Shown: positions 488-63,315, counted from the stretch's first letter. The stretch: 64,000 nt of DNA from an uncultured virus (IMG/VR IMGVR_UViG_3300050343_000130) (IMGVR_UViG_3300050343_000130), one strand, 5' to 3'. Made by a program: numbers and translations. Notes: a model not told the origin generated them from the letters alone.

Positions 488-520
488 TATATTATCGATA
501 TGTATTCGTATTTGTTTTGT
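488..520 (-). promoter_or_regulatory. class I (early) promoter-like motif, copy 1
   Basis: ACA-N5-AATACGA-N8-CGATAATATA on minus strand upstream of ORF 275-463. Confidence 0.75.
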
Positions 521-521
521 G

Positions 522-653
522 TTAATACATATCTTGTTGCCACTTTGGTATCTCGGAATTATATCTAGTCCAATACTCTCGCTCTATCGCCTCGATTTCT
601 ACCAATTTAATCTTGTGATGACTAAACTTCCGTTTCTTTCTGGATTTCTTCAT
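522..653 (-). CDS. hypothetical 43-aa basic protein (MKKSRKKRKFSHH...)
   Basis: Translated by hand; ATG-TAA, fills the gap between neighbouring minus-strand genes. Confidence 0.55.
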   Translation of the reverse strand: MKKSRKKRKFSHHKIKLVEIEAIEREYWTRYNSEIPKWQQDMY

Positions 654-819
654 ACATTTTTTTGATCGCTAGATACATTACATGAGCATGTAGTTCATTA
701 TAAGAGTCGCCTTCAACGTGAAACTCTGCTATTTGCCAGTGAATGCTGTCATACATTAATTCTTTAGTGACGTCAGCAATACCTTGTGCTACCTCGTCTA
801 TTTCTTTCATTTTACTCAT
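622..819 (-). CDS. hypothetical early protein
   Basis: ORF track 622-861; likely start at MSKMKE, just after the upstream gene stop. Confidence 0.6.
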   Translation of the reverse strand: MSKMKEIDEVAQGIADVTKELMYDSIHWQIAEFHVEGDSYNELHAHVMYLAIKKMYEEIQKETEV

Positions 820-821
820 AG

Positions 822-1004
822 TTATGCTTTTATATATGTTAAACCTTTGTGGTTGAACCATTCAGATATACCGATTTGATCGCTACCGTCTTTGTCATTG
901 TATTTAAATGCAAATGTTGGTGGTAGATTGCCAAGATTGTATGGCTTATAGGTAATACCGTTTAGTTTTAATTTTTTCTCGTGGAGTTTTTTAAGTTTAT
1001 TCAT
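822..1004 (-). CDS. hypothetical early protein
   Basis: 60-aa ORF immediately downstream of promoter motif 1016-1048. Confidence 0.65.
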   Translation of the reverse strand: MNKLKKLHEKKLKLNGITYKPYNLGNLPPTFAFKYNDKDGSDQIGISEWFNHKGLTYIKA

Positions 1005-1015
1005 ATATTGTTTAT

Positions 1016-1048
1016 TATATTATCGTTAGTTATTCGTATTTACTTTGT
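1016..1048 (-). promoter_or_regulatory. class I promoter-like motif, copy 2
   Basis: ACA-AAGTA-AATACGA-ATAACTAA-CGATAATATA. Confidence 0.75.
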
Positions 1049-1252
1049 ATAATCAACATTCGGTTGTATACTTGCAGCGACACCTTGTCTGAATTGCCAC
1101 TCTCGTCTGCGATATTCGTGATCGGTGCACCACTTACGCCATGCTTTACTTACTGTATTGTTAGTACCGTATTTCGCTTCGAACTCTTCGACTTGCTTTA
1201 GTTTAGCGTCGATTTGGTCTTGAGGATAGTCGTTGAATTTAGTAGAAGTCAT
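1040..1252 (-). CDS. hypothetical early protein
   Basis: 70-aa ORF in the minus-strand early cluster. Confidence 0.65.
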   Translation of the reverse strand: MTSTKFNDYPQDQIDAKLKQVEEFEAKYGTNNTVSKAWRKWCTDHEYRRREWQFRQGVAASIQPNVDYTK

Positions 1253-1358
1253 AGTATATGTCTAAAACGGTTGATTTTTCTTCGCTAGTCAGTTTAGAGT
1301 AGCACTTGTTATATTTTCTGTAGCTTATTTTAAGCAGATAGGTATTCATATGTCCCAT
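1239..1358 (-). CDS. hypothetical 39-aa protein (MGHMNTYLLKISY...)
   Basis: Translated by hand; starts 17 nt after promoter motif copy 3. Confidence 0.5.
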   Translation of the reverse strand: MGHMNTYLLKISYRKYNKCYSKLTSEEKSTVLDIYYDFY

Positions 1359-1374
1359 AGTATTATTTATTTAT

Positions 1375-1407
1375 TATATTATCGTTAATTATTCGTATTT
1401 GTTTTGT
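1375..1407 (-). promoter_or_regulatory. class I promoter-like motif, copy 3
   Basis: ACA-AAACA-AATACGA-ATAATTAA-CGATAATATA. Confidence 0.75.
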
Positions 1408-1408
1408 G

Positions 1409-1558
1409 TTATCCGTAGATTCCGAAGCTTGTTGGTGCTCCGTTTTGTATCATATTTATTATTAATGAAATGGAACCAAAGATTACTAGAGTTACTTGAG
1501 CATAAGCGATCACGCCTATTACTATGTTAAGTACTTTGTTGTGGTGAAATTTTCTCAT
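1409..1558 (-). CDS. 49-aa single-pass membrane peptide
   Basis: Translated by hand: MRKFHHNKVLNIVIGVIAYAQVTLVIFGSISLIINMIQNGAPTSFGIYG; long hydrophobic stretch. Confidence 0.55.
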   Translation of the reverse strand: MRKFHHNKVLNIVIGVIAYAQVTLVIFGSISLIINMIQNGAPTSFGIYG

Positions 1559-1559
1559 A

Positions 1560-1763
1560 TTATTTATTTGTTGATTTATAAAATTCTATTCTATCTAAGA
1601 CATCTTGTCTAGTTATTTCACCTTCCATTTGTTTACCGATGTAGTGAGTCATGTCGATTTCTTTGCCGTTAGGACAAGTTAAAGTATATATCATATTATT
1701 ATTTTTAGTTGACATAGTGAGAATCGAACTCACATAAACCATTATGTCATTACTTGTTCGCAT
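1560..1763 (-). CDS. hypothetical early protein (true start may be internal, near 1694)
   Basis: ORF track; downstream of promoter copy 4. Confidence 0.55.
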   Translation of the reverse strand: MRTSNDIMVYVSSILTMSTKNNNMIYTLTCPNGKEIDMTHYIGKQMEGEITRQDVLDRIEFYKSTNK

Positions 1764-1806
1764 TTTTATACTTATAGAAACAAGTGGAACTTAAAGTTGT
1801 TACATT

Positions 1807-1839
1807 TATATTATCGATTACCGATCGTATTTAATCTGT
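1807..1839 (-). promoter_or_regulatory. class I promoter-like motif, copy 4
   Basis: ACA-GATTA-AATACGA-TCGGTAAT-CGATAATATA. Confidence 0.75.
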
Positions 1840-2142
1840 AACTGGATTTCTGTCTAGGATTAAATGTCTAGTATTTTTAGGCATATCGGTTGACTGTGAC
1901 CAGTATTGTCTCTTAATCCAGCAAGGCATTATAGATAACTTAGGTAACATTACTTTCAACACTTCGTCGTGATTGTAAGTTCTCTTAACACCTTTCTTGT
2001 TAGTGAAAGAGATGATTTGATTTCTACCGAGCCAAGACTTTCTTACTACAAAGTTCTTTCTTTCGATTGGTGGATAGATCGCACTTAATTCTTCAGTGCT
2101 TAGTTTACTGATAGCTTTCGCTAATAATTCTTTATTACTCAT
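1831..2142 (-). CDS. hypothetical early protein
   Basis: 103-aa ORF directly downstream of promoter copy 5. Confidence 0.7.
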   Translation of the reverse strand: MSNKELLAKAISKLSTEELSAIYPPIERKNFVVRKSWLGRNQIISFTNKKGVKRTYNHDEVLKVMLPKLSIMPCWIKRQYWSQSTDMPKNTRHLILDRNPVTD

Positions 2143-2164
2143 ATTATATTTATTTATTTACATT

Positions 2165-2197
2165 TATATTATCGTTTACTCTTCGTATTTAGTTTGT
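2165..2197 (-). promoter_or_regulatory. class I promoter-like motif, copy 5
   Basis: ACA-AACTA-AATACGA-AGAGTAAA-CGATAATATA. Confidence 0.75.
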
Positions 2198-2364
2198 ATT
2201 TAACATTCTTCAACTTTCAATACATCGTCTAATTTATAGAAATTAAAGACTTCTTGAATTGTGTTTACTTTTAGGTATTTAACATAGTTTGTAGGAATTC
2301 CATTTTTATTCAAGTATTCTCTAAAGTTATTTTAAACATAGTATTGTTATTTGTTTGTTACATA

Positions 2365-2397
2365 TATATTATCGTATACCAATCGTATTAGGTTTGT
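2365..2397 (-). promoter_or_regulatory. class I promoter-like motif, copy 6
   Basis: ACA-AACCT-AATACGA-TTGGTATA-CGATAATATA. Confidence 0.75.
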
Positions 2398-3750: not shown

Positions 3751-4485
3751 ATGGCAAGAATTAGTACATACCCAGTTGATCAGAATCCAGAAGGATCGGA
3801 CATATTATTAGGTACGGATGCCTCCGGTGGGACAGATGCTACTAAAAATTTCCGTATATCAGACATATCGCTAATATTAATAAACGATTTTCTAGCTAAT
3901 AATAGCTGGACATTCAATATTGATGAAGCTGACGCTGAAATGCGCAAGGCGCAGCTGTTTTTTGCGGCAGGTGGCGGCAACAATACTAGTTGGGCAAATA
4001 TAACAACCCTAAGATCAGTGTTGTTAATGGGCAATAACACTAATGCTCAACCCTATCTTCAATACTTGCTTACTAATGACCCTGTAACTGGGCAACCTGT
4101 AGTAAATAACCTAATCAAGATATCAGATCGTAATGATTTAAGCTCTTTTGGCGTGTTTTCTTTTACATCGTTAACAGCAGTCGCTGGTAAAACGGATATA
4201 TACGACATGGGACTTACTTTTATTAAAGGTGCAGGCTCAATACAAAAGAAGCACGTGTATGGCATCAATATAGATCCATCCGATGCTACCGACAAAACAT
4301 TTGAATTTACTCAAGGAGTTCCTTCTACAACATGGAACATACAACACAACTTAAATAAGTTCCCGTCTATAACTGTAATCGATACAGCTGATACTGTAGT
4401 GACCGGACAATATACTTATATAGATAACAACAACGTAACACTAACATTTTCGGCAGGTTTTGCCGGCAAGGCATACCTAAACTAA
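3751..4485 (+). CDS. tail-associated structural protein
   Basis: C-terminal TWNIQHNLNKFPSITVID...AYLN module common in phage tail proteins. Confidence 0.6.
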   Translation: MARISTYPVDQNPEGSDILLGTDASGGTDATKNFRISDISLILINDFLANNSWTFNIDEADAEMRKAQLFFAAGGGNNTSWANITTLRSVLLMGNNTNAQPYLQYLLTNDPVTGQPVVNNLIKISDRNDLSSFGVFSFTSLTAVAGKTDIYDMGLTFIKGAGSIQKKHVYGINIDPSDATDKTFEFTQGVPSTTWNIQHNLNKFPSITVIDTADTVVTGQYTYIDNNNVTLTFSAGFAGKAYLN

Positions 4486-4491
4486 CAAACT

Positions 4492-5901
4492 ATGGCAATT
4501 AATTTTTTAAACACGGTTGATTTAAATCAGAATCAACTTAACCAAGCAACGATACAAAATCTTGCAGCTAACCCAGCTTCGGGTGTTGAGGGGCAGGTTT
4601 ATTTTAATACTGTATCTCAAACGATAAAAGTATATAAAGAAATATTACCGGCAACAAACCCTAAAACTTACGAATGGGCATCCATATCTGGCGATATAAC
4701 GGGGCTAATCGCAGGTACATATATTAATATAGATGATGCGGATGGTCCGGTACCTACTATTAATCATGATCTAACAACTAGAACAAATACTACATCGACA
4801 CAATCTCCAGCTTATGGGGCAGATGTCGTAGTTATAGATTCTATAACTTCAAACACAACAGGTCACATAACTGGTGTAAATACTAAAACAGTAACATTAC
4901 CAGCTGATACAAACGAAACATATACATTACCTGTAACCGCAGGCACAGTAGCCCCTGGGGCACCAACAAGCGGTAAAATATCTTTAACAGCTGGTGGAAC
5001 TGGGTCTGGCGTTAAATCTACAGTAGAATTTGTAGGTACAACAGGTAGAATAGATATAACAAGTGTTAATCAAAATAACGGTAGTATAACTATTGATTTA
5101 ACAGATGATGTTACAATAGTAGATGATTTAACTGTTGGAGGTGAATTAACAGTGTCTGGGACTGGTCAGTCTAGTTTTGCTGGTCAAGTAACAATACCTC
5201 AAACACCTGTTGCAGATACGGATGCTGCTTCTAAAAAATATGTATTAGATCAAGTTGCTGGATTAGGAAGTTTCCAAGGTGGGTATGATGCATCAACTGA
5301 TCCTGGATCTCCTGCATTAACAGGTGCTAGTAACATTGCTTTCGGACAAGGAGATTTTTATGCAGTTACAACAGCAGGTACTATAACATTCAGTGATTCT
5401 CCAACTGGGGACGCAACATTAGAAGTTGGTGATTTTATATTTTCAAATACAGATATTACCGCAAACTCAAATCCAGCATCAACGGATTTCACACTTATTT
5501 TAGCGGATCAAAACATTGCAGGCTCTGGAGCAACAGACGGTGCTACACCAAAAGGTGTCGCTGGTTTTGATTCAGCAAACTTTGACGTATCGGCAACTGG
5601 TTGGGTACAATTAAACTCTCAAAGAAATCCTTACGGTGCTAAACAGGCTTTAAATAATACAGCTCCATCTTCAAGAGCAGAGGCTGGGGGCGTAACAACA
5701 TTCACCTTAGACTTAGCTGATGCTAGTTTATTTGGAACAGGTGCTTTAGCAGAGAATGTTAAAGTAGAGGTAACTGACGGGTCCTCACCTTATCAAACAG
5801 TATTTGCAGAAGTGACAAGAAGTGGGTCCGCAAGTATGGCTATAGCTTTTACAGGCTCTATAGCAAACGACGCTTACCAAGTGCTTCTTTCACACGTATA
5901 G
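4492..5901 (+). CDS. tail fibre-like protein
   Basis: Thr/Gly/Ser-rich, DAASKKYV fibre repeat, position in tail cluster. Confidence 0.65.
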   Translation: MAINFLNTVDLNQNQLNQATIQNLAANPASGVEGQVYFNTVSQTIKVYKEILPATNPKTYEWASISGDITGLIAGTYINIDDADGPVPTINHDLTTRTNTTSTQSPAYGADVVVIDSITSNTTGHITGVNTKTVTLPADTNETYTLPVTAGTVAPGAPTSGKISLTAGGTGSGVKSTVEFVGTTGRIDITSVNQNNGSITIDLTDDVTIVDDLTVGGELTVSGTGQSSFAGQVTIPQTPVADTDAASKKYVLDQVAGLGSFQGGYDASTDPGSPALTGASNIAFGQGDFYAVTTAGTITFSDSPTGDATLEVGDFIFSNTDITANSNPASTDFTLILADQNIAGSGATDGATPKGVAGFDSANFDVSATGWVQLNSQRNPYGAKQALNNTAPSSRAEAGGVTTFTLDLADASLFGTGALAENVKVEVTDGSSPYQTVFAEVTRSGSASMAIAFTGSIANDAYQVLLSHV

Positions 5902-5922
5902 ATTAACTAATACTTATAATGC

Positions 5923-8280
5923 ATGGCATTAAAATTTTTAAATAACGGATATTTCGCCGGCAAGGTAGGTATTGGAACAGAAACATCGTACACGGTAGGG
6001 GGAACTGCTCAGGTAACTATTGCAACTGGATCTGCAGAAACAGCTTTAGCGTTTGGACCTAGTAACAACGATATGCTTTATATGCGTAGCGCTGGAAGTC
6101 AAGGTAATTTTCAATTTCAAACGTCTGTAAACAGTGGTAACTCGGGAAGTATTCAACTACAACCTTTTGGCGGCAACGTTGGTATAGGGACGACTACTCC
6201 AAATGCAAAACTTGACATTCAAGGAACGCAAGGGCAATTATTTTCTGTAACTGATGACTTGTCAGGAGAAATATTTGCTGTAGCTGACATCTCAGGTGTG
6301 CCTATTATGGCTGTTAACTCGAGTGGCACTTCTTATTTTGATGGAGATTTAGGTGTTGGAACATCTACCCCTTTAGCTAAGTTAGAAGTTAATGTAGCAA
6401 GTGGCGATGGTATTTTAATTAAAAGTGCAGATGTAGCTACATTAAAATTTAAAGGAAGTGGAGGCGTTTCAAACTGGGGATTTGCATCAACTAATTTAAC
6501 AGCTGGTGATTTTGGGTTATATGAGTCTAACTCTGTTGGAGGTGATCCTATATCAGCAGGGACATCCAGAATAATGATAAAACCAGGTGGCAACGTCGGG
6601 ATCGGAACGAATGATCCAGAATGTAAATTACATACAAAGGTAGGCACATCAGGTGGCTCCCCTTACGACAGTTCTGTTGGTATTTTTGCAGAAGGAGCGA
6701 CCAGAAGTATAATTCAAATGTCAAGCACATCTGATGCTTACTTAATGTTTGGGGATGCAAGTGTTAATAATCAGGCTTGGTTTGGTTATAATCACGCAAC
6801 TAACCAATTATTGTTACATACTGGTAGCACCATAACTATGGACGGTAACGTCGGGATTGGGACGACTGATCCTTTGGCTGAACTACAGGTTGGGCTTTCA
6901 ACAAGTAACACAGGTAATAGATCAACGTTAGCAATGTTTGGTGCCGCGGAGTCAGGGATTTTAAATGCTTTATCTTTAGTTAATACGACTGGAGCAGCTG
7001 CTACAGGATATGGAACAAGAATTAATTTTCATTTATCTTCTAATTATTCTCCTACTGGATGTATAGAAGTAGTAACTGAAGACTTAACATCCAATGCTAC
7101 TGATTCAACAATGAGGTTTAGCACTTACGGTACAATTGGTAGCTCAACAACCTATCAGTCCAGATTAGAAATTTCCTCTGCTGGAGCTATTAAATTTAAT
7201 GATTATAATTCTACCAAACAAACAGGTACTCCAACTTATATGTTAGGTACAGACGCTTCAGGTAATGTTGTAAAAGTATTAGGTGGCGATATACCAGGTG
7301 TACCAGGTGGATCAGGTACTTTAAACACCGTTCCTTTGTGGACGCCAGATGGCGATACACTGGGTGATTCTCCAATTACTATTAGCGGTAATGATATAAT
7401 TTCTTCAGGAAGAGGTGTCATTGAAAATACAACCAACTTAACAACTGGTGTAGTAGATAGTCTACTTATTAAAACACTTTCTTCTGGAACAACAATTACT
7501 AATGGTTTTGGTGGTGGGTTATCTTTTTATCTTGAAAATACAGTTTATTCAGCAGTAAATGAAGTTGGAAAAATTGCAGTTATTGAAACTGACACAATTG
7601 CAATAGACGATAAAATGGTTTTTTCTGTTAAAGATAATAATATTTTAGCAGAAAGATTAACCTTAACTGGTTCAGAAGCAGTTTTTACAGGCAACGTTGG
7701 GATTGGGATAACGAGTCCTGGAGATAAGTTACACGTTGAGGGTGGTATTATAATACAAAACGGAAACAACTTACAATGGGGAGGTCTATATTCTGCGGGA
7801 GCTCCTACAATATACGCATCTACAAATTACCTTCATTTTGTGCCAACGGGGACAACAGGATCAGGGTACAGGCAAATGCGATTAGATACAACTGGTCTTG
7901 GTATTGGAACATCTTCTCCAAGTGAGAAGTTAGATGTAGCAGGTAATATAAAAATACAATCAGCTTTACTCTCTAACCAAGAAAATACAGATATAGATAC
8001 AGGAGCTGAAGTAGTTGCTCAGGTTGCACACGCTACTTATACAGCAGCTTTCTTTGACTTTGTAGTTAAGAAAGGTACAAATGTAAGATCAGGTACAGTT
8101 TATGCTTGTCATAACGGAGATACAACTCCTTTAGTGGAATTTACAGAAACATCGACACAAGACTTAGGCGACACATCAGATGTTACACTAAGCGTAGATA
8201 TATCAGGAGCTAATATGAGATTATTAGCAACAGTGACTTCAGATGACTGGAGTGTTAAATCATTAATAAGAGCAATATAA
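5923..8280 (+). CDS. modular tail fibre protein with GNVGIGT repeats
   Basis: About 7 G(N/K/D)VGIGTxxP repeats separating variable beta-rich modules. Confidence 0.8.
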   Translation: MALKFLNNGYFAGKVGIGTETSYTVGGTAQVTIATGSAETALAFGPSNNDMLYMRSAGSQGNFQFQTSVNSGNSGSIQLQPFGGNVGIGTTTPNAKLDIQGTQGQLFSVTDDLSGEIFAVADISGVPIMAVNSSGTSYFDGDLGVGTSTPLAKLEVNVASGDGILIKSADVATLKFKGSGGVSNWGFASTNLTAGDFGLYESNSVGGDPISAGTSRIMIKPGGNVGIGTNDPECKLHTKVGTSGGSPYDSSVGIFAEGATRSIIQMSSTSDAYLMFGDASVNNQAWFGYNHATNQLLLHTGSTITMDGNVGIGTTDPLAELQVGLSTSNTGNRSTLAMFGAAESGILNALSLVNTTGAAATGYGTRINFHLSSNYSPTGCIEVVTEDLTSNATDSTMRFSTYGTIGSSTTYQSRLEISSAGAIKFNDYNSTKQTGTPTYMLGTDASGNVVKVLGGDIPGVPGGSGTLNTVPLWTPDGDTLGDSPITISGNDIISSGRGVIENTTNLTTGVVDSLLIKTLSSGTTITNGFGGGLSFYLENTVYSAVNEVGKIAVIETDTIAIDDKMVFSVKDNNILAERLTLTGSEAVFTGNVGIGITSPGDKLHVEGGIIIQNGNNLQWGGLYSAGAPTIYASTNYLHFVPTGTTGSGYRQMRLDTTGLGIGTSSPSEKLDVAGNIKIQSALLSNQENTDIDTGAEVVAQVAHATYTAAFFDFVVKKGTNVRSGTVYACHNGDTTPLVEFTETSTQDLGDTSDVTLSVDISGANMRLLATVTSDDWSVKSLIRAI

Positions 8281-16321: not shown

Positions 16322-16732
16322 ATGGCAATTACTTACAAATGGGATATTCCCGCAATGAACGCTCACATTCAAGCAGAAGGTGAAGACAATGTAATATACA
16401 CGGTACATTACAGATATACCGGTTCTGAAGAATCTGGAGGTGAAATTTATTCATCAACTAATATAGGGACACAAAGTTATACATATATAGCAGGCGAACC
16501 TTTTGTACCTTACGAAGATACAGAAGCTTTTGAAAATGTAGTTATCGGATGGTTAGAAGGATCGTTGGATGTACCTGCAATGCAAGCGAGTATAGCCGCG
16601 AGTATAGAATCTCAAATTACACCAGTAAATGAGGACTTGTACTTTACATGGCAAAATCCTCAACCACCAACCCCCCCACCAACTCCAGAACCACCGGTAG
16701 AGGAGGAAGAAGAAGTTAACGACGAAAAATAA
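16322..16732 (+). CDS. hypothetical protein (possible tail fibre assembly factor)
   Basis: Acidic 136-aa ORF, Pro/Glu tail. Confidence 0.6.
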   Translation: MAITYKWDIPAMNAHIQAEGEDNVIYTVHYRYTGSEESGGEIYSSTNIGTQSYTYIAGEPFVPYEDTEAFENVVIGWLEGSLDVPAMQASIAASIESQITPVNEDLYFTWQNPQPPTPPPTPEPPVEEEEEVNDEK

Positions 16733-16745
16733 TACGTAATAATAA
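16731..16745 (+). promoter_or_regulatory. class II promoter-like motif AATACGTAATAATAA
   Basis: Exact 15-mer also at 40582 (+) and 61910 (-), always upstream of an operon. Confidence 0.65.
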
Positions 16746-23383: not shown

Positions 23384-23603
23384 GGAACTTATAAAAGTAG
23401 CTAAAGAAGATATTGTTGATTCAGACGATGATATATCAGCTGACAGATTAAAAAATGCCGCAGCCACTAAAAAGCTTGCAATTTTCGACGCTTTTGAGAT
23501 ACTTAACCGCATCGAGGAAGAAGAAAGAATTCTTGATAACAAACCAAAAAAAGAAGTTAAATCAACTTCGTTTGGTGGTTTTGCTGAAAATAGATCTAAA
23601 TAA
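23328..23603 (+). CDS. putative terminase small subunit
   Basis: Helical 91-aa ORF immediately upstream of terL. Confidence 0.45.
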   Translation: MNIKETKKNIIQAGHRAVEELIKVAKEDIVDSDDDISADRLKNAAATKKLAIFDAFEILNRIEEEERILDNKPKKEVKSTSFGGFAENRSK

Positions 23604-25819
23604 TGTACGAGCAATCTCTATATAAAGTTATAGAACCTATAAAGCGTACTACAATATCTAGGCTTAATAAAGGTAAAAAATGGGATTACGGATATAACAA
23701 GGAACATGATGTAGTTGTTATCAGTAAAACTGGACAAATAGGAAAAATATATGAGATACAAAATCTCAAAATAGCATTACCTAAATCACCAGGTAAGCTA
23801 GATAAAACTACAGATAAATGGACGCCAGCTGAGTATCCTCCTCAATTAAAAAGTATTAAAACTATTTTTGATTGGAGAGATTATCCAGAAGGTTTTAAAA
23901 AAACTTGGGGGGAATATATAGATGAAAACTTTAATAAACGGGAAAACGGTCATTGGTTCAATAATAAGGGTGTGGATACTTACATTACTGGTACTCACTT
24001 TATGTACTTGCAGTGGTCCAAAATTGATGTTGGGAAACCAGACTTTAGGGAAGCAAATAGATTATTCTTCATTTTCTGGGAAGCTTGCAGAGCCGATTCT
24101 AGATCCTATGGGATGTGCTACCTTAAGAACCGTCGATCTGGATTTTCTTTCATGTCATCAGCTGAAATTGTTAATCTTGCAACAATATCCTCGGATTCAC
24201 GGTTCGGTGTATTGTCCAAATCTGGACAGGATGCTAAGAAGATGTTCACTGACAAGGTGGTACCAATCTCTGTTAATTATCCGTTCTTCTTCAAACCAAT
24301 ACAAGACGGAATGGACCGCCCGAAGACCGAACTCGCGTATAGGGTCCCGGCCTCGAAATTTACCAGGAAGACTCGATTCGAAGGATAGATCCGGAAGAGA
24401 AACGCTTGAAGGATTGGATACGACCATCGATTGGAAGAACACCGGCGACAACGCCTATGATGGGGAGAAACTTAAACTCCTCGTCCACGATGAATCAGGG
24501 AAAGTGGGAAAGGCCGAACAACATCCTCAACAACTGGCGTGTTACGAAAACCACCCTTAGATTAGGTAGTAGAGTAATAGGTAAGTGTATGATGGGATCA
24601 ACATCAAACGCTTTAGACAAAGGAGGGAGAAAATTTTAAGAAATTATATAATAGTTCAGATGTTACAAAAAGAAACGCCAATGGACAGACTCGCTCGGGA
24701 TTATATAGTTTGTTCATACCTATGGAATGGAACTACGAGGGATTCATTGATTCTTATGGGTTACCTGTATTCGACACACCAAAAGAACAAGTTGTCGGGC
24801 CTCATGGGGATGAGATCGACCAAGGAGTAATAGAGCATTGGAATAACGAAGTTGAAGGTTTAAAAGGCGATCAAGATGCTTTAAATGAATTTTACAGACA
24901 ATTTCCAAGAACAGAAGAGCACGCTTTTAGAGACGAAACAAAAAACAGTATATTTAATTTAGCAAAAATATACGAACAAATAGATTACAACGAAGACTTA
25001 GGTAACAGTAATGTTTTAACAAGGGGTAGTTTTCAATGGGAAAATGGTATAAAGGATTCAAAAGTAATTTTTTCACCAAATCCAAATGGAAGATTTCTAA
25101 TAAGCTGGATACCTAATTATGATATACAGAATAGACAGATATCAAAAAACGGTATTAAATGGCCCGGTAATGAACATATGGGCGCTTTTGGCTGTGATAG
25201 TTATGATATATCAGGGACAACAGACGGTAGGGGATCTAAAGGGGCTTTACATGGATTAACTAAGTTTAGTATGGAAGATGCACCACCTAGCACATTCTTT
25301 TTAGAATATGTAGCAAGACCACAAACAGCTGAAATGTTTTTTGAAGATGTATTAATGGCTTGTGTATTTTATGGTATGCCACTTCTTTGTGAAAATAACA
25401 AACCAAGACTTTTATATTATTTTAAAAGAAGAGGTTACAGAGGTTACTCTATGAATCGTCCTGATAAACTATGGAACAAATTATCAGTAACCGAAAGAGA
25501 AATAGGTGGAATACCTAATTCAAGTGAAGATATTAAACAAGCCCACGCTGCTGCTATTGAAATGTATATAGATAAGCACGTAGGTTTAAACGACCAAAAC
25601 GAATATGGAACAATGTATTTTAATGAAACATTACAAGACTGGGCCAAATTCGATATAAATAACAGAACAAAATTTGATGCCGCTATTAGCTCAGGGCTTG
25701 CTATTATGGCTTGTCATAAAGATTTATATAGACCAAATATCAAAATGGAAAGAGCACCAATTAATTTAAGATTTGCTAAGTATCAAATCGAAGGATCAAC
25801 ATCAAAAATAATAAAATAG
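23603..25819 (+). CDS. terL: terminase large subunit (three apparent +1 frameshifts at ~24370, ~24500, ~24630)
   Basis: KNRRSGFS Walker A, LLVHDESGK Walker B, GST motif, GCDSYD and KFDAAIS nuclease motifs across four consecutive ORF pieces. Confidence 0.85.
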
Positions 25820-25823
25820 TAAT

Positions 25824-31002: not shown

Positions 31003-31021
31003 GCTGACTATCAAGTAGTGG

Positions 31022-31048
31022 TTACCCTCGTTGAACTGACGGGGGTAA
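31022..31048 (+). terminator. stem-loop after major capsid gene
   Basis: TTACCCTCGT-TGAACTG-ACGGGGGTAA. Confidence 0.6.
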
Positions 31049-31084
31049 TTATTACTCTTATTAACATTTATATTATATTATATC

Positions 31085-40583: not shown

Positions 40584-40596
40584 TACGTAATAATAA
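40582..40596 (+). promoter_or_regulatory. class II promoter-like motif
   Basis: AATACGTAATAATAA, 23 nt upstream of the ejection-protein operon. Confidence 0.65.
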
Positions 40597-42528: not shown

Positions 42529-45500
42529 ATGCCAAAATATACAGATTCAAATGGTAACGTTGTTTCAGAAGAACAGGTTGCTCAGGATATGGCTATAGTC
42601 GAGTTTACTGATTTACAAACTTACTTAGAATTTGCAGGCTTAAAGCCAGTAAAGGAAAACGGAGTTGCGGAGACGGGTGCGTCTGCGGCTCCAGACAACA
42701 ATCAAGCGCTCAATCAAAAGGGAGTAGATACGGGATCCAATTGGGATCAAGATTCTTTGGATACGTCAAATACTGAAGAAGCAAAGCCAATTGACAATGT
42801 TCGCTATATAAAATTCAAAAGCGGTGCTGTAGTTTATGAAGATGAATATTTAGATAAATATGCTGGCACTGAAAGGTTCCCAGCCAGCTTTGATGATTAT
42901 GCCGCAAAATTTAAAACAAAACCTATCACACCTTCTCCGTCTAATGTAGAGCTAGAAGAAGTTGTGGTTGAAGCAAAGCTTAGTCCTGAAGTAAAAAAAG
43001 CGCAAGATAATGCAATCAAATACGTTCAAACAATTGATAGCAAAAATGAAATAACTTTAAAGGGTGAAATAGGTATTAATTACTTTAACCTTACTGACGA
43101 GTATAATGGTATTGGAAAACTTGAACCTAAGTTTAAAAGAGAGCAGCAATTTAAAACTCTTCCTGGCGGGAGAAAATCAGGGTATTCAGAATATGTTAAT
43201 GATATTGATACAGATTTTAAAAATGAACTAGGTGAAACTAAATACAATCAATGGCAAGCTATATTAAAAGCAGCAGGAGATACAGTAATAACTAAAGAAA
43301 ATATTGCTGAATTTATAGATTTAGCTAAAATAGATAATGCTACTAAATCTGAAGTTGTAAATTCTGCTAAGAATAAAGCTTCGGAATTATTTATATACGA
43401 TAATGATTTATCTGAAGCTGAGCAGGAAAAAATGTTAATGAACCTGCCTTATAGCTCAAAGACTAAAGCGGCTATGCGGGAAGAGGTTGCCAAAAGAAAA
43501 CAAGATGAAATTGATTTTGAAAATAAATTTGGTAGAACTTTAGTAAGAGAAGAAACACTACAAGGTAGAACTTATAAGCCTTATTCGCTTGCGGTGAATG
43601 AAAACATGTTCGACGATATCATAGCAAAAGAAAACGCAACTTTAAAAACTGATTTTGAAGCAATAAATATTGACGCTAAAAAATTTATATCTGCACAAAA
43701 TGATTTTACACAAGTAAGATCTCAATATGAAAACGAATTAATTGATTTAGAAAATCAAATAAAAAATTATTCAACAGATAATTATTCTTCTCCAGAAGAA
43801 ATAAATATTAGAAATTCATTTGTAACAAGATATAATGACATTTTGTCCTTAGCTAACTCTGAAGCCATGCAGTCTCAATGGAAAGACCTAACCGCATCTA
43901 GGGCTGAATTAAAAGAAAGAAGTGACGCTTTGACATTAAGAGCTAAACAACTTAATGATTTAAATATAGGTGCTGGCGCAATTGGCAAAAGTTATGAATT
44001 AGGAGATCAGTTCGCCCAAGTAATGGAAGAAAGCTTTTTAGGAACTTCCGCTATGTTAGGAGGGTCTGTTTTTAAGTTAATTGGTAATATTGCAACCATA
44101 GGACAAACAGAAGACGAGGCAATGCAGAATAGCTTTTATAGGGATATGAAAGATATGAAAATGGCAGCCGTTGATTATAATGAAAGACTTCAAAAAAGAA
44201 GGGAAAATTATTTGCCTTCGCGAATTGAATGGGACGATAAAGAGGCTGGATGGGGTGATTACGTAAGCACTATGCTGGTTGAAAATTCTCCTTCTATACT
44301 AACTGCTATGGGTACATTAGGGGCAAGCTCTGCTGGTGTTTTATCAGTAAAGGCAGCCACTAACGTTGGTACAGGCATATTTTTTGTTATGGAAGCTGGA
44401 GGCCAAATGTCAGGACTAGAAATAGCGCAAAGAAATGCAGATGAAATAATATTGTCTTTAAATGAAGAGCTAAAAACAGCGGTAGGTGACTCTGAAAAAA
44501 GAGAAATACAAAGACAAATTCAAGAGCAAAAAGATATATTAAATTTATCTCAATGGAAAAAATCATTAAGTAGCTTGGTATACGGAGGTACAGCTGCTGT
44601 GGCAGAACGGTTTGGTACATTAAATTTTATAAATAATTTTCAAAAATATTCTAGAGCTATTGGGGCTAACCAGTTTAAAAAGTTAGTCGGCGATGGCATG
44701 GCTAGAACATTAGCTAAAACAACAGGAACGATTGCTGGCGTTGGAATGGGAGGAGGAATAGAACTGCTAGAAGAAGGTTTTACTTTAATCGGCCAAAACA
44801 TATCAGATGTTGCTATATTAAAAGAAGATAAAAATATATTTGAGGGATTAGACAAAGATTTTATTGCGAACACATTAGCTACAAGCATGGCTATATCCGG
44901 CCCTCAAGCTTCTCAAAATATATATTCTATTGTAAAGTCAGAAGTAATATCTAGAAGGGAAGCAAGAGAGGAATCTAAACTTAGAGACGAAATATTAGGC
45001 TTACAAAATAGTATAAACGGAGATAAACTTACTGCGGAAGAAAGAAAGAGAGCAAGGAGAAAGAAGTACGAACTAATGACAGAATTAGGTTTACAAAATA
45101 CAGAAGCTGTATTAAAAATAAACGATATGACTGCTCAAGAGTTTGAAAATGTAACCGAAATTAATAGAGAAATGAGAGCTTTAGAAAACGAAGCCTCACA
45201 GTTAGGGGCCGGAGGAGACGTTTCTGGTTATGCCTTGAATGAATTAAAAAATTTAAAATCTAAATATAAAGATTTAATATCTCAGAGAGAAGCCATACTT
45301 GAAAGGCAAAAAAATGAAATAGACAAGTTATTTGATAGCGATGGCGAATTAAATGTAAACAAACAATATTCGGCTCAGTTATTTAATTTTGCTAAAAATA
45401 TAATTAAAAATAATAAAGGCACAAAAAGTCAAAATTTTACCACAAGTGCAGATGCTATAAAATTTATTAAAGAAAATCATTCAAAATGGTTTGCTGATTT

Positions 45501-48500
45501 AAATGATCAAGATAAAAAAGATTTTGAAAGCGGACAATGGGGAGGACTAAACATCGGTAATAATATATATACAAACCAAGAGTCTGTGTATAATGATATT
45601 AATACTGGTAATTTAAGAGTTGGGCAAATGGCAGCGATGTCACCTTTGCATGAACTCGGCCATATTCAAGCTGTCAAAGCAGGAATAATAAAAGACGAGA
45701 AATTTGTTGGAGACGCGAACGCTATGATAAATGGCGTAAAACAAGAGGTTGCTAACTTATTTAATCAAAGAAAAATATCAGCTGAGGATTATAAATTATT
45801 CCAAGATAGAATGGCCCAGTATATAGACGCTAATACAGGCCAAGTAAATGCAGATGAACTAATACAACTTATCGGAGACTTCACTAATTTAGGTATATTA
45901 CCAAGAAGTTCTTTTAATAGTGTTTTTGAAATTAAAAACTTTGTTAGTAATTTAATGAAGAAGGCAAATGGTGATGCGGAAATGTATTTTAGATTTAATA
46001 AACCAGAAAACGTATTTGGTTTTGTTAATTCTTGGACAAAAAAAGCTATTGGTGGAAAACAATTAGGTGGTATTGAAGATAAAGAAAAAAGCAAAGCTAA
46101 GCTAAGTAAATCTCAAGTACAACTTGAAAAAACAAAAGCTAAGTTTAAAGAATTAGAATCTAATTTCCAATCAGGAGCAGCCCAAAATGCGATAGCTAGT
46201 GAGTTGTTTAACATGGTTGACACACAAATTGGTAATAGATTTAATTTAAGGCCACAAGTAAAACAAGATCTTAGAGATGATGTAATTGAACGAATATATA
46301 AAGCACAAGAAACTACAAAATGGGACGGTAGAGGTAGCTTATATGGCTTTATAAACGGTCGTATTGCTAAAAGAATACTTGATGCTTTAAGAGGTGATCA
46401 ATCTTATTTGGAAAATATTGATAATAATCAATTTGAGCAATTAGAAAAAGCAGCAGCTGTAGTGGTGGAGGATAAACCTGTTACTCAAAAAGCAAAACCA
46501 CAATATAAAAATTTATTAAAAAGTAATGTGCTATCTAGCGAAGCTATAGCAAATATAAATTCAAAAGTATTAACAATAGTACGAACGCTTAAATCTAAAT
46601 TAAACGAAAAAATTTCTAATAATAGAACCGTTACACCTTTAATCGCTGAGATTAAAAAAGAAATGGGGAAGCAGGCTGATATTGATTTAAAGAAAGCTAT
46701 GGGCGGTATTAAAGATAATGCCATACAGAAATTTCTTACTAAAAATAAAAAAGCTATATTAGAAAACATGACCACTACGTGGTTAATGGGTGCTATCCCA
46801 AGTGCTGTACAAAAGCAAGTTGATGGAAAGTTTATATCTAATTGGAAAGGCCAAAAAATTGATAGAGAAACCGTTGGAACAGATAATGCGGGTAGAACAT
46901 CTGGCGCGGAAATAACACGAAGAAAGCCAAATGTAGCATCAATGCCTGATGCGGAATTCTTAAGTTATTTTATTGCTGACAATAAACTCATTAGAGGCAG
47001 GAAAGAATCACTTGCTAAAGCAATGGCTGAAGAAATATCTTTAGAAATATTTAACACTGAGCTACAGAATGAAAATAGCGAGATAAGCAAGGCTTTTGAA
47101 CAAAATCAAACATTAAAAGGTGTAGAGCTATTAGACAATTATATAGTAGAAGTTGCTAAACAAACAGAAAGAGGAAATGCTAAGTTTAGCAAATCACTAA
47201 GTGCTAACGAGGCTAATATTGTAAAAAGTAAAGCGAATCAATTAAAAAATAAGTTAATAAAAGCTGATGTAAAATTAACTGCCAAAAGATTATTACCATT
47301 TTTAATAGACACGTACCCTGAAATAGACGAAAAAAGATTAAAATCTTTTGCTACAGAAGCTATACAATCTATACAAAGATATATTAAAAAAATTGAAATA
47401 ACCGATAAAGTTGATTTTGGTAATTTTATTTTTGAAGGGATGTCTTTAAAAGAAAGCAATAGTAATTTATTAAAGTTTTTTGGATTTTTAAAAAATGATG
47501 TAGAGTCTTTAGGTGCGTTGTTTAATAACCCTGATCTTATAGCAGAACAAAGGGGTCTTGAGCTTTCTTATAATACTAATTTAATTTTAAAAGAAGGCGC
47601 TGATGGATTAATAAAAATATTAAGATGGGGAAGGGGCCATAATGTTACTTCAGGAAAAATTGGTGGTGGTAGAAATCAAATTTATGCAGGCAACCCCGAT
47701 TATTTAGATAATAATTTAAATAATATACCAGATGTTGAAGTAGTTTATAAAAAAGGCAAATCAACTTCTATTAAAGCTGTTTTCTATAAAGGTATTGAAG
47801 TAGAAAAATGGAAAGAAAGGATACAATCCCCAGCCCAAAAACCCGCAGGTGGAATAGAAGGCTTTAGAAAGGATTCTCAAATTAGAGAAGATGCTGCAAG
47901 AGAAGCGTGGACTTACTTAACGGACTATCTACAACACGTAAAAGATAACGGCTCTAAAATAAACTGGGTCATGACTATGATGAGTTTGAAATCGAACATG
48001 TCATCCGTCCTTAAAGCGGCGGCTCCTGTTAAGTATTACTTTAACGGTAATTACAAAGGGCCATTAAGGTATGAGCATATGATACCTACCGAATACATGG
48101 TGCTAAAACTTACCGACTATTATTATAATGGCAAAAGCTTTGATTTAAATACCTTAAGGGACAAGTATAATGTTGCTATTATTCCTGTAATAATGGACAA
48201 TAATTTTAACGTTCTTACTCAGTCTCAAATGAACAGTTCGTTTGATCCAATGGTTGATTCCGAAGTTGATAGATATTTTAATGAAAACACCTATGGATAT
48301 CCTAATATGTTTCCTATAGAATCTTTAACCGGAGAAACTAAGGGTAATATTGAGGGTGAAACTTGGGTAAAATTTAACAACGTTTTAAAGCCACAGGCTG
48401 CGAAAATGTCTAAGTCAATGCGTATAGCAGATAAGGCTATGAACGCTGCTAGAATGCCAGACTACGGAGTAAACCCAAAAGGAATTAGTGTTTATGACTT

Positions 48501-51188
48501 TGACGATACTTTAGCTTTTAGTAAAAGTAAAATTATTGTAACTATGCCCGACGGTAAAGTTACTAAGATCACACCTGCTGAATTTGCAGCTAAAGACGAA
48601 ATACTTTCAGAACAAGGAGCGTCTTTTGATTTTAGTGAATTTAACAAAGTTGTTCAAGGTACTAAAGGGCCATTAGCAGCTAGACTAGAAAAAGCAATAA
48701 AGAAATTCGGCAATAAAAATATATATGTTTTAACTGCTAGGCCACAAGCGTCAGCACCTGCTATATACGAATTTTTAAAAGGTATTGGTTTAGAAATACC
48801 ATTAGAAAATATAACTGGATTACAAGACGGAAGACCTTCTGCTAAAGCTGACTGGATGATTGAGAAATTTTCAGAAGGTTACAATGATTTTTATTTTGTA
48901 GATGATGCATATAAAAATGTTAAAGCGGTGCAAGATGTGTTAAGTGTTTTAGATGTGAAGTCTAAAGTGCAGCAAGCTAGAGCAAAATTCAGTAGATCAT
49001 TAAGTTCTGAGTTTAATAAAATGATTGAACGTAACAAAGGTGTTACTGCTGAAGCTCAATTTTCAAATGCTGTTGCTAAAAGAAGAGGAGCTAATATTGG
49101 TAAATACAAATGGTTTATACCATCGTCGGCTGATGACTTTAGAGGATTGACACAATATACTTTTGCAGGTAAAGGAAAACAAGGTGAAGCAGATCAAGCG
49201 TTTTTTGAAAAAGCTTTAATGGATCCCTACTTCGCGGGAATATCTGCTATTGAATCATCGAGACAGATGATGAAAAATGCTTATGCTAATTTGTTAAAAC
49301 AAATGAAGCCAGTAAGAAAGAAGCTTAATAAATTAATACCTGATACAAGCTATACTTATGATCAAGCTATAAGGGTTTATTTATGGAACAAAGCAGGATA
49401 CGATATTCCAGGTTTATCTAAAAGAGATTTAAAAAAGTTACTTAGTATAATTAATAATGACTCGGATTTATCGGCGTTCGCTGATGGGGCTTTGTTATCT
49501 TCTAAGCAAGATCAATGGTCCGAACCCTCTGAGCACTGGCAAGCTGGGACTATACTTAAAGATTTAAATGAGTTAACTGAAAAAGTAAATAGAAAAGAAT
49601 ACTTAGGTGAGTTTATAGCTAATTCAGAAATATTATTCAGTCCTGAGAACATGAACAAAATTGAAGCTTTATATGGATCTAGACATAGGGAGGCTTTAGA
49701 GGATGCACTATATAGAATGCGTAATGGGACTAATAGACCATCGGGTGGCAATAGATTAACAAACGCGTGGAATAACTGGGTTAATAATTCTGTAGGTACT
49801 ATTATGTTCTTCAATAGAAGATCGGCTTTATTACAGTTATTATCAACAGTAAACTTTATAAATTGGTCTGATAATAATCCGTTAAAAGCTAGTATAGCTT
49901 TTGCTAATCAGCCACAATACTGGAAAGATTGGGTTAGAATATTTAATTCTGATAAACTAAAGCAAAGACGTGGTGGTTTAAAATCAGATATACAAGAGCA
50001 AGAGATAGCGAGTCAGGCTAAAAACTCTAAAGATAAGTCATCAGCTATAATAGCTTACTTATTAAAAATAGGTTTTACGCCAACACAAATTGCAGATAGT
50101 ATGGCCATCGCAACAGGTGGAGCAACGTTTTATAGAAATAGAATAAACACGTACCTTAAACAAGATATGTCAAAAGAAGAAGCTGAAGCAAAAGCTTGGG
50201 CAGACTTTAGTAAAATATCAGACGAAGCACAGCAATCGGGTGACCCGGCTTTAGTATCTCAACAGCAAGCTAGTGTCCTAGGTAGATTAGTGTTAGCTTT
50301 CCAAAATACACCTATGCAATATACTAGGTTAATGAAAAAAGCTGGGCTTGACATTATAAACAGACGTGGTGATTTTAAAACAAATTTTAGTAAAATAATA
50401 TATTACGGTGCTGTTCAAAACTTTATATTCTCAGCGTTGCAGAATGCATTGTTTGCTATGATTCCTGGGTTTGATGATGAAGAAGAAACTGAAGAAGATA
50501 AGAAAAAGAAAGAAAACCAAAAGACTGGCAGAATAATACATAGTATGGTAGATACTATATTAAGAGGATCTGGTTTAGCCGGAGCAGTTGCAACTACCAC
50601 TAAAAATACTATTAGAAAATTTTTAGAGCAAGAAGAAAAAGGTTTTACCGCAGATCATACCTACACTATTATTGAAGCGGCTAACATATCACCACCTATA
50701 GGATCTAAATTAAGAAAACTATACGGAGCAATACAAACATGGAAGTTTGATAAAGACGTTGTTAAGGAAAGAGGTTTTGATGTTACTTTAAATGGTAAAT
50801 TAAACATTAGCCCAACATACAATATAATAGGTAATCTGTCATCTGCTTTAGTAAACTTACCGCTTGATAGAGCTTTAATGGAAGTTGAAGGTATTGTTGA
50901 AGCGTTAGATGAAAGAAATACTTTATACCAAAGAATAGCTTTAGCTTTAGGTTGGAGAACTTGGGGTGTGGGTGCTAAAAATGAAGAAGAAGATCTTATA
51001 AAGGATGCTGCTAAAGCAAAAAGAAAAGAAGAAGGAAAATTAAAAGCAAAAGAAACTAGAAGAGTTAATAAAGATGCTTTATAAAACTTGAATTAGAAAT
51101 AGATGGTGATAATTTTATTGAGTATTATGAATGGAAAAAAGGTAAAAGTATCAAAGATAAAATAGAATGGCTTAAATCAAAAAAATAA
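42529..51188 (+). CDS. giant polyvalent ejection protein: metallopeptidase + sigma-like + unknown + HAD phosphatase + C-terminal domain (ORF ends 51084; likely frameshift extends to 51188)
   Basis: HELGH at 45649; sigma region-2-like segment 46200-46400; DFDDT/LTARP/VDD HAD motifs 48496-48910; four AK[LFM]S[KR]S linkers. Confidence 0.75.
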
Positions 51189-61909: not shown

Positions 61910-61924
61910 TTATTATTACGTATT
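61910..61924 (-). promoter_or_regulatory. class II promoter-like motif
   Basis: AATACGTAATAATAA on minus strand, 25 nt upstream of ERF. Confidence 0.65.
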
Positions 61925-61935
61925 TTATTCATAAG

Positions 61936-62688
61936 TTAAAGATAATCAATTACTTGGTTGCTGTCGACATTAGCGATTAAATGGTCGATTGCTTCTTTTT
62001 TAATCTGCGAAACTATAACAGTTGCAGTCGGAACTTTGAGACCAATATAGTCTGCTATTTCTTTTGCAGAATGTTTGTTGCAATCTAAACCATAAAATAA
62101 TCTAACTACGTCGTATTGTTTTGATGTTAAATGTTCTTGCATTAGACTAAGCAAATAAGTGTTTAGTAAAGCTATGTTATATGGCTCGGACTTATCAGGT
62201 AATTGATAAGCAAAGTTATCTTCATCGGCTGGTGTTATATCATAACTTGAAAACATACTATTAAAAAACAACGCTACCATCTTATCATCTTTAGGGTTCT
62301 TGCGTATTTCATTTAGCTTGTGTTCTGGTATTTTAATATCGCCTCTGTTAATATCTATTGATCTTCTTATAGCTCCTTTAATTCTTTTACTTAGAAATGA
62401 CTTCAATGTTTTTTCAATGTCCTCTGATTCGTTTAAAACATCCCAGTCTAATCTGTCCACAGCTTTAGTTAATCCTGCACCGCCTTCTTGCAATAGATCA
62501 TTGATACTTAAAACTCCCGAAGCCTGCTGTGTTGTTGAAAACTTGCGAGCTAGATTTTCTACCAACGGCAGAAATCTAATTATAAGTTTATCTCTTGATA
62601 ATTCACTATAGCCAATGTCTTCATCAGGCATAGATGACTTAACATCTTCTTTATACCTAATGTAATTCTGTATATTATATTTTTTCAT
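61936..62688 (-). CDS. sigma70-family RNA polymerase sigma factor
   Basis: Region 2 LPLVENLARKF...DLLQEG..GL.KAVDR...IKGAIRRSI; region 4 LT.KQ.DVV.LFYGL...SAKEIA. Confidence 0.85.
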   Translation of the reverse strand: MKKYNIQNYIRYKEDVKSSMPDEDIGYSELSRDKLIIRFLPLVENLARKFSTTQQASGVLSINDLLQEGGAGLTKAVDRLDWDVLNESEDIEKTLKSFLSKRIKGAIRRSIDINRGDIKIPEHKLNEIRKNPKDDKMVALFFNSMFSSYDITPADEDNFAYQLPDKSEPYNIALLNTYLLSLMQEHLTSKQYDVVRLFYGLDCNKHSAKEIADYIGLKVPTATVIVSQIKKEAIDHLIANVDSNQVIDYL

Positions 62689-62694
62689 TACTCA

Positions 62695-63315
62695 TTATAA
62701 TTGCTGGTTTAATAGTTCTTTTTCTCGTCTTAATTCATTTGTCATATTTCTATGCACTGTACGTGTTGAACAACCTAACATTATACTTATCTTTGATATA
62801 TTGATTTTTTGTTTATTATCATTTAATATAAGCATACTATCATATATTTCAGCAGCCGATAGCTTTTGTCTACCAACCATCTGGCCTACTATAGATAGCT
62901 TTTGTCTCATATCTAAACCGCAGTGATCTTTGAATATAACCTTACGCAATTTATTTGGTGGTGGTTTTTCTAAGTCCTGCATTGATACATCATATACCAT
63001 GCTCTGCATTAATTGTTCTGATACTTTAAAAGTAACAAATCCATTTCTATTATCGCAGACGTATCGTGTTAATGCTGTAAAAGCATCAGCATCCATTTGG
63101 GGATTCAAGTACCATAATACGTACAAGTGCCACTTTAAAGATCTATATGTAGTTATCTTTGCTCTTGATGCAAACAAGTTATAACATTCATGGGTACCGT
63201 CTGCATAAAAATCACCCCAGGCAAATTGCTCTGTTGGTTTATCGCTGATCGGATTACGCCTGTATATTACTCTATGCCTGTTAAGATAATCTTTATTTCT
63301 TTCGTACTGTGACAT
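62695..63315 (-). CDS. DNA-binding protein with C-terminal HTH (possible replication initiator)
   Basis: ISKISIMLGCSTRTVHRNM HTH; start codon lies inside spaced palindrome. Confidence 0.6.
   Translation of the reverse strand: MSQYERNKDYLNRHRVIYRRNPISDKPTEQFAWGDFYADGTHECYNLFASRAKITTYRSLKWHLYVLWYLNPQMDADAFTALTRYVCDNRNGFVTFKVSEQLMQSMVYDVSMQDLEKPPPNKLRKVIFKDHCGLDMRQKLSIVGQMVGRQKLSAAEIYDSMLILNDNKQKINISKISIMLGCSTRTVHRNMTNELRREKELLNQQL

Follow-up and report, generated by a model that had tools for sequence, protein, structure and literature searches.

In phages T4, SPO1 and phiEco32, sigma-type proteins (gp55, gp28/gp34 and gp36, respectively) redirect the host core RNA polymerase to phage promoters in temporal order; the first wave of transcription in these cascades depends on the host sigma factor, and the phage sigmas are made after infection. 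The locus considered here is a 64,000-nucleotide (nt) stretch of DNA from an uncultured virus (IMGVR_UViG_3300050343_000130), referred to at its full length as the window. It seems to depart from this arrangement, in that its first genes are preceded by six copies of a three-box motif, termed class I, which is predicted to be a promoter of non-host type, and its candidate sigma lies in a giant virion-type protein and comprises domain 2 only.

Early transcription served from the virion has been described for the crAss-like phage phi14:2, whose virion RNA polymerase, gp66, is delivered at infection (bioRxiv 10.1101/2020.03.07.982082). Like the window phage, phi14:2 is a Bacteroidota podophage with a crassvirus-type muzzle and a virion block that ends in a giant protein, but its early transcripts have no common upstream motif and its middle promoters are of host type (TTG..TAnnTTTG). 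Class I does not have this tripartite form, and no class I site was found in phi14:2. Class I and the giant protein would act as the opening stage of a sigma cascade does, and stand where crAss-like phages place the virion polymerase, but belong neither to that arrangement nor to the sigma cascades. Polyvalent phage proteins, which combine a zincin HExxH peptidase with swappable cargo domains and for which injection and self-processing have been proposed (Iyer et al. 2017, PMC5512222), provide a second parallel: the giant protein is likewise large and multi-domain, with both the HExxH zincin and the variable, swappable cargo that define such proteins. The main text of that study does not mention sigma. 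A third parallel is found in the PeSL cassettes of T4-like phages, which carry repeated early promoters of host sigma70 type and terminator hairpins (Arbiol et al. 2010, PMC2839356). Class I resembles PeSLs as a repeated early promoter that precedes small variable genes, may likewise mark where shuffled modules end, and is unlike them in being of non-host type and in having no hairpin. A literature search found no description of the motif, the phage family or a packaged sigma; the supplements, including the phi14:2 promoter file, were outside its scope.

The known relatives Pervagoviridae (phi38:1, Calle), Elemovirus and Maribacter phage Panino have the same virion gene order and GroEL/GroES as the window phage, with 37–46% identity in the major capsid protein, but lack class I, the sigma-like module and the stand-alone sigma described below, and have host-type promoter sites. 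The major capsid protein is 37–48% identical to those of phi38:1, Calle, Elemo, Panino and MW202828, and the host is therefore probably a marine Bacteroidota species; the RNA runs containing the region are recorded as seawater or marine. The complete phage genome would measure about 66.5 kb, and the window covers the greater part of it. Its closest relative, G001 (66,183 nt), is collinear, and has about 2.5 kb between the window's two ends that is missing here, with two further motif copies. Virion genes occupy the plus strand from 2849, and small genes followed by replication genes the minus strand from 2397. The motif is present at six places on the minus strand with no mismatch:

2365..2397, minus strand: predicted class I promoter with which the early strand opens; start predicted at 2361 (G)
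2165..2197, minus strand: predicted class I promoter, predicted start 2161; 5' of the 103-amino-acid (aa) gene 1831-2142
1807..1839, minus strand: predicted class I promoter, predicted start 1803; 5' of the small genes 1560-1763 and 1409-1558
1375..1407, minus strand: predicted class I promoter, predicted start 1371; 5' of 1239-1358 and 1040-1252
1016..1048, minus strand: predicted class I promoter, predicted start 1012; 5' of 822-1004
488..520, minus strand: predicted class I promoter, predicted start 484; 5' of the 62-aa Cys-rich gene 275-463

The six exact copies agree with the original prediction, and are far above chance, with a mean of 0.01 in 100 dinucleotide shuffles and at most one copy in any shuffled window even with up to three mismatches allowed. 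One copy lies 5' of each one- or two-gene cassette. An ATG was indeed found close to every copy, but the distance, first given as 12–45 nt, is corrected to 11–43 nt (24, 11, 16, 43, 22 and 25 nt from motif end to first usable ATG), and the frame that begins at the ATG 3' of the 2365 copy is only 9 codons long in the window, compared with 46 in three related loci. Among 22 relatives, homologues of the 103-aa gene are found in 19 and of the Cys-rich gene in 14. The invariant block spacing, also part of the original prediction, extends to the whole family: in 20 genomes, 127 sites have spacers of 5 and 10 nt and none occurs at any of 14 neighbouring spacings.

Evidence that the motif is a promoter comes from two positions that were not part of the search pattern. 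Across 334 distinct sites, position 37 is a purine in 99% and position 36 a T in 71%; wherever an ATG stands at position 37 (26/26 cases) it begins a frame of 35 codons or more, compared with 9/129 for an ATG at position 35. This start signature, a purine 7 nt after GATAAT, would fix the register, with TACA at -37..-34, AAYACGA at -28..-22, GATAAT at -12..-7 and the predicted start at position 37. The 334 sites also have A at -11, T at -7 and a pyrimidine–purine step at -1/+1, all textbook promoter features, and their fixed-spacing boxes, in one orientation and 5' of genes, are those of a bacterial-type promoter. A point against is that in 20 of the 334 an open ATG precedes position 37. Contigs are available from four RNA runs; they partly cover 1-2337, and in one run 2395-2850 as well. 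Neither starts nor strand can be read from them, and they were not used.

Several known signals were compared with the motif and set aside. A likeness to the sigma28 (CGATAA) and sigma54 boxes was rejected, as C at -13 is not conserved family-wide. An N4-type single-strand hairpin promoter and a dyad operator were likewise rejected, the motif having neither conserved hairpin nor dyad symmetry (mean folding energy -1.0, compared with -0.9 once the spacers are swapped). The interval 1-2900 lacks a TAnnTTTG box on its minus strand, and a generic sigma70 scan gave 9 matches compared with 15.5 in shuffles, in keeping with the earlier claim that the motif matches neither the Bacteroidota housekeeping nor the E. 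coli consensus. The Flavobacterium sigmaA box is TAnnTTTG at -12..-5 (PMC9723704); the Bacteroidota promoter shares A at -11, T at -7 and a purine start with class I, but class I differs from it (TAnnTTTG at -12..-5, TTG near -33) at -12, -8, -6 and -5 and has two upstream boxes of its own.

The motif proved to be common to an entire uncultured family. An exact scan of IMG/VR returned at least 170 motif-bearing stretches, and the ACA block, absent from the query, came back at 96–99%. Copies number 5–13 per genome, on a single strand, in uncultured phages related to phi38:1, Elemo and Panino. In one set of 22 records, 13 matched the motif; of the six with a completeness of 90% or more, one had been picked by the motif, and the other five, picked by the giant protein alone, all carry 11–13 copies on one strand, compared with none in the reversed control. 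All 15 records picked by the giant protein and the stand-alone sigma matched the motif, and some loci with no strict match have relaxed versions with a decayed middle box. At one mismatch no site was found in the outgroups phi38:1, MW202828, Panino and Elemo, which carry host-type promoter sites. Early cassettes, promoter plus small gene, reappear in altered order among relatives. The early region of G082 (L409:346-3054, 4422-7418) combines two class I subtypes, the upstream one having AAAACGA and AT at -13/-12 and the downstream one GCA..AATACGT and AG, which suggests a recent mosaic.

Because of the start-site signature, the fixed spacers, the conservation across the family, the absence from four outgroups with host-type promoters and the lack of enrichment in the host family (see below), the motif is read as a phage-specific, non-host promoter, as originally predicted. 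We regard it as highly probable, from sequence comparison, that it is an early promoter, and it is most likely the start signal of the first genes in this phage family, unlike host promoters.

The candidate reader is encoded at the end of the virion block:

42529..51084, plus strand: 2851-aa virion-type polyvalent protein (the giant protein), last of the ejection-protein block, its N-terminal part homologous to phi38:1 gp101
45649..45663, plus strand: HExxH motif of zincin type, aa 1041-1045, N-terminal to sigma2
46123..46401, plus strand: sigma region-2-like (sigma2) domain, aa 1199-1291, candidate reader of the -10 box on fold and profile evidence
46486..47148, plus strand: conserved basic domain, aa 1320-1540, 3' of sigma2 (the post-sigma2 domain), candidate reader of the -28 and -35 boxes

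The N-terminal part matches phi38:1 gp101, annotated as structural and in the same position, at E 7e-27. The DFDxD motif of RNA polymerase catalysis is absent from every frame of the window, about 2.5 kb of the genome lying outside it. A structural model of aa 1190-1560 (mean predicted local distance difference test, pLDDT, 79.6) matches sigma domain 2 over model residues 10–102, with sigma factors in 16 of the 17 top structural rows; the best match of the segment has Z 8.3, a root-mean-square deviation of 2.5 and 90 aligned residues. Entries 7d7d and 9m7y are among the rows, chain 7d7d_F being T4 gp55. A profile of 38 rows, drawn from among 46 segments and that of the window, finds SigE domain 2 at E 0.0028, with sigma in six of nine matches. 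On leave-one-out the segment is recovered in 44 of 52 giants, compared with at most 6 bits in reversed controls. The giants of the four outgroups (phi38:1, MW202828, Panino and Elemo) reach no more than 4.4 bits and lack the segment, and these four relatives also lack the motif. The segment lies 3' of the HExxH motif in 22/22 giants; G093 has no HExxH. Foldseek gave nothing under E 0.001 against the PDB and viral models for either the sigma2 model or the post-sigma2 domain. In a protein atlas the nearest named cluster was Sigma70_r2, at 19% of members, a low recognition to be taken as a lead only. A profile–profile comparison of the giant's sigma2 with the stand-alone sigma was weak (probability 12%, E 0.0024), and neither protein has a match among cultured phages. 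The post-sigma2 domain is confidently modelled (pLDDT 88.6) with no fold match (best Z 4.3). On the fold and profile results, the sigma domain 2 fold and the region 2.3–2.4 pattern of aa 1199-1291 are real, and the sigma-like domain first proposed from the sequence is upheld. The zincin is a candidate self-release protease. The sigma2 segment and the domain following it are exchanged between near-identical phages, and a HAD-like DFDDT motif lies near aa 1990.

A second sigma, overlooked in the original prediction together with the class II promoters, strengthens the logic of a cascade:

61936..62688, minus strand: stand-alone sigma of 250 aa, which probably reads class II
61911..61939, minus strand: predicted class II promoter (TAA box, 14 nt, RYGTAATWATA), immediately 3' of the sigma gene
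16716..16744, plus strand: predicted class II promoter in the late block
40585..40595, plus strand: class II -10 box, 5' of the ejection-protein genes (40619 onward, giant included)
62695..63315, minus strand: 206-aa protein with a C-terminal helix-turn-helix (HTH), directly 5' of the sigma gene; in 46/46 motif-bearing genomes and 0/4 outgroups
63046..63078, minus strand: weak seventh class I copy with two mismatches, in the open reading frame of the HTH gene (62695-63315), 358 nt 5' of the stand-alone sigma gene

The seventh copy may be chance-preserved or functional, the HTH protein is possibly an activator or shut-off factor, and a further class II site occurs at about 28250 on the plus strand. 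A class II element is found just 3' of the sigma gene in 71 of 79 distinct loci (the other eight being without box or site) and also 5' of late genes. The base before the class II TAA is G with 23/23 sigmas that have E in the region 4.2 helix and with 0/48 that have Q. Tight linkage and few events limit this association, the tree requiring two E/Q changes, one of them a reversion in L436, and some extra class II sites in whole genomes, late ones included, break the rule (G021, G052, G054). The class I TACA box does not respond to the E/Q change. These patterns make the stand-alone sigma the likely reader of class II; because its gene lies downstream of class I promoters and its region 4.2 residue tracks the class II base, it is a less likely reader of class I.

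Covariation of class I with its candidate readers was analysed in 48 genomes with at least four sites, 46 after near-copy removal; G089 and G093, both with a sigma2-like segment, were left out after failed alignment. The -13/-12 bases, for which CG, TG, GG, AG, GT and AT occur naturally, are fixed within genomes (302/352, compared with 173 expected; spacer controls only slightly raised), which argues for a lineage-specific reader, and orthologous cassettes carry the variant of the resident genome (CG in the window, GT in G043). Pairs of genomes alike only in the giant's region 2.3–2.4 share a class in 30 of 40 cases, compared with a baseline of 229/894 and a zincin control of 5/26. In the pairs G043 (GT)/G086 (GG) and G094 (CG)/G085 (GG) the stand-alone sigmas are 88–90% identical and the giant sigma2 unlike. 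The -28 box is intact in 18/18 genomes with a post-sigma2 domain of the window's type and decayed in 4/5 with another type, and the Mantel correlation between box and domain is 0.37 (partial 0.355). Nearest-neighbour prediction of class performed equally with the two candidates (32/46 and 33/46). The -13/-12 bases thus appear to follow the giant's region 2.4 in part, within a covariation that is mixed.

In the mechanism that we favour, the giant protein would be packaged and ejected together with the DNA, and the neighbouring zincin would perhaps cut the sigma2 domain free; this domain would dock on the host core RNA polymerase and open the -10 box, with the post-sigma2 domain replacing sigma regions 3–4 at the upstream boxes. 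Class I transcripts would include that of the stand-alone sigma, which would then read class II so that replication and virion genes are expressed. That the giant is packaged, that its module is released and binds polymerase, and that this module reads class I, is what we infer here, and the chance that the whole chain holds, from an injected module reading class I through the host polymerase to the takeover by the stand-alone sigma, is placed at about even. The suggestion that the motif is the target of an injected sigma-like domain is accordingly retained in part: the domain is real and plausible as a reader, while the covariation proposed as a check gave a partial signal (the 30/40 pairs) together with clear counter-cases.

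A number of observations weigh against this mechanism. The 30/40 pairs derive from about three clusters and are not independent. For -14..-12 the Mantel correlation is 0.34 with the stand-alone sigma, compared with 0.08 (partial 0.08, p 0.08) with the giant's sigma2, and pairs alike only in the stand-alone sigma share a class in 51/88 cases. The pairs G036/G040, G076/G079 and G083/G081 have stand-alone sigmas 97–99% identical, giant sigma2 segments 12–15% identical and the same promoter class; a recognition helix so freely swapped is a poor fit for an invariant promoter core, and no simple residue-to-base code was found in region 2.4. Pfam sigma matches are weak and occur in 2/46 segments, and Z 8.3 is under the tool's caution level for helical bundles. 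The post-sigma2 domain comprises 13 types among relatives, has no known fold, and gave no sigma4 row among its structural matches. Packaging of the giant is suggested by gene position and homology, and the motif is accompanied by the stand-alone sigma and the HTH gene no less strictly than by the giant's domain.

Foremost among the other explanations is that class I is an early promoter read by host sigmaA holoenzyme redirected by a virion activator or appropriator, with sigma2 only gripping or jamming the core polymerase and its sequence having no role in specificity. The exchange of sigma2 among near-identical phages with no change of promoter and its weak Mantel signal would be expected in that case, and bases 30–37 loosely resemble TAnnTTTG (TA..WWTG). 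In the register of the start signature, however, -12, -8, -6 and -5 differ from that box (PMC9723704); the alternative register places the 26 open ATGs within the -7 box, and fixation of different -13/-12 bases across whole genomes requires a lineage-specific reader. We consider this explanation unlikely.

Somewhat less probable again is that the stand-alone sigma itself reads class I, and perhaps class II too, and amplifies itself after priming by leaky host transcription or a small number of packaged copies. The protein is as conserved as the motif core (52–81% to that of the window among non-sister genomes), is the best Mantel partner for -14..-12, and has a class I copy directly 5' of its gene in G002, G004, G023 and G024. 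Its region 2.4 is, however, near-invariant across the CG, TG, AG, GG, GT and AT classes, its region 4.2 change is mirrored in class II and not in the TACA box, no consistent host-type promoter lies upstream of its gene in 19 genomes, and the Mantel signal can stem from linkage, the gene adjoining the early region.

The strict pattern was also searched in 185,579 species genomes, giving 49 loci, 38 of which have homologues of the phage family. Complete class I promoters in sense occur on flavobacterial contigs (L506:3001-3034, L481:411-444, L493/L528:3001-3034, L503:3001-3034, L495:3001-3034 and L546:1501-1532); the flavobacterial copies are intergenic, 11–99 nt 5' of accessory, non-phage genes. 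A TerB-domain gene follows the copy in L506 (a 1.39-Mb contig), MORN-repeat and DUF285 genes lie near others, and the L546 gene is TerB-like by eye only, with no Pfam match; the L492 copy was rejected as a chance match within a coding region. At L535:1501-1827, a Flavobacteriales chromosomal contig, a class I-like site and a homologue of phage gene 1831-2142 (E 1e-6) lie beside a LexA/UmuD-like gene (by eye), pointing to a captured early cassette. Copies such as those in L506, L481, L493, L503, L495 and L528 would suit a reading, to our minds quite improbable, in which the motif is a host stress promoter taken over by the phage and served by a host alternative sigma, but at one mismatch only 9/251 Flavobacteriaceae genomes match, compared with 12 reversed-control matches (a general sample, not aimed at the true host), the five positive genomes examined hold 1–2 copies each, with none of the host copies seen 5' of a sigma gene and no homologue of the stand-alone sigma, and the copy preceding the homologue of the phage gene speaks for capture from phage, the simplest reading of the host copies. 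The accessory genes behind them are candidate infection-triggered genes.

That the motif is no promoter at all, and instead an operator bound by the HTH protein or a repeat at which cassettes recombine and are shuffled, is very improbable: the HTH gene accompanies it in all 46 genomes and 37 of 120 distinct homology-block ends (17% expected; ends not independent) fall within 25 nt of a copy, often at its upstream edge, but the motif has no dyad or conserved hairpin, shows strict orientation, a start-site signature and ATGs at +1, keeps near-identical HTH helices alongside both intact and decayed -28 boxes, and can be shuffled in cassettes while serving as a promoter, as in PeSLs.

Other features of the genome were noted. 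The interval 2400-2850, a gene-free gap at the strand divergence where GC and AT skew change sign, is probably a genome end or origin region; G013, G037, G039 and G073 have a class I-like copy in opposite orientation in the corresponding gap. A GC-rich hairpin (ACCCTCG...CGGGGGT) at 31002-31085, between the major capsid gene and the next gene and conserved in many relatives, is probably an attenuator or processing site. Splits or truncations affect the genes for terminase, portal and muzzle as well as the first early gene (23603-28255, 33676-33888, 2200-2339); assembly errors are the likely cause, since G001 is split at other places.

Transcription of phage genomes is known to begin from host-type promoters or with a packaged polymerase, and a private first-wave promoter with no polymerase of its own needs a third way. 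The two promoter consensuses, the predicted start sites and the natural variants (the -13/-12 classes and the intact or decayed -28 box) make the question testable in vitro, with no need for culturing. The motif-bearing family is one of widespread ocean phages, and the motif a marker for this common uncultured family. We tentatively suggest, at somewhat less than even confidence, that this large podophage family swapped a crAss-type virion RNA polymerase for an injected module of sigma2 and a domain of unknown fold, which is cut from the giant ejection protein and turns the host polymerase to a private promoter upon entry, and that some small-genome flavobacteria captured this promoter as an infection-triggered switch for TerB-like and accessory genes; the host copies may point to the hosts of these phages, and to the genes that infection triggers in them.

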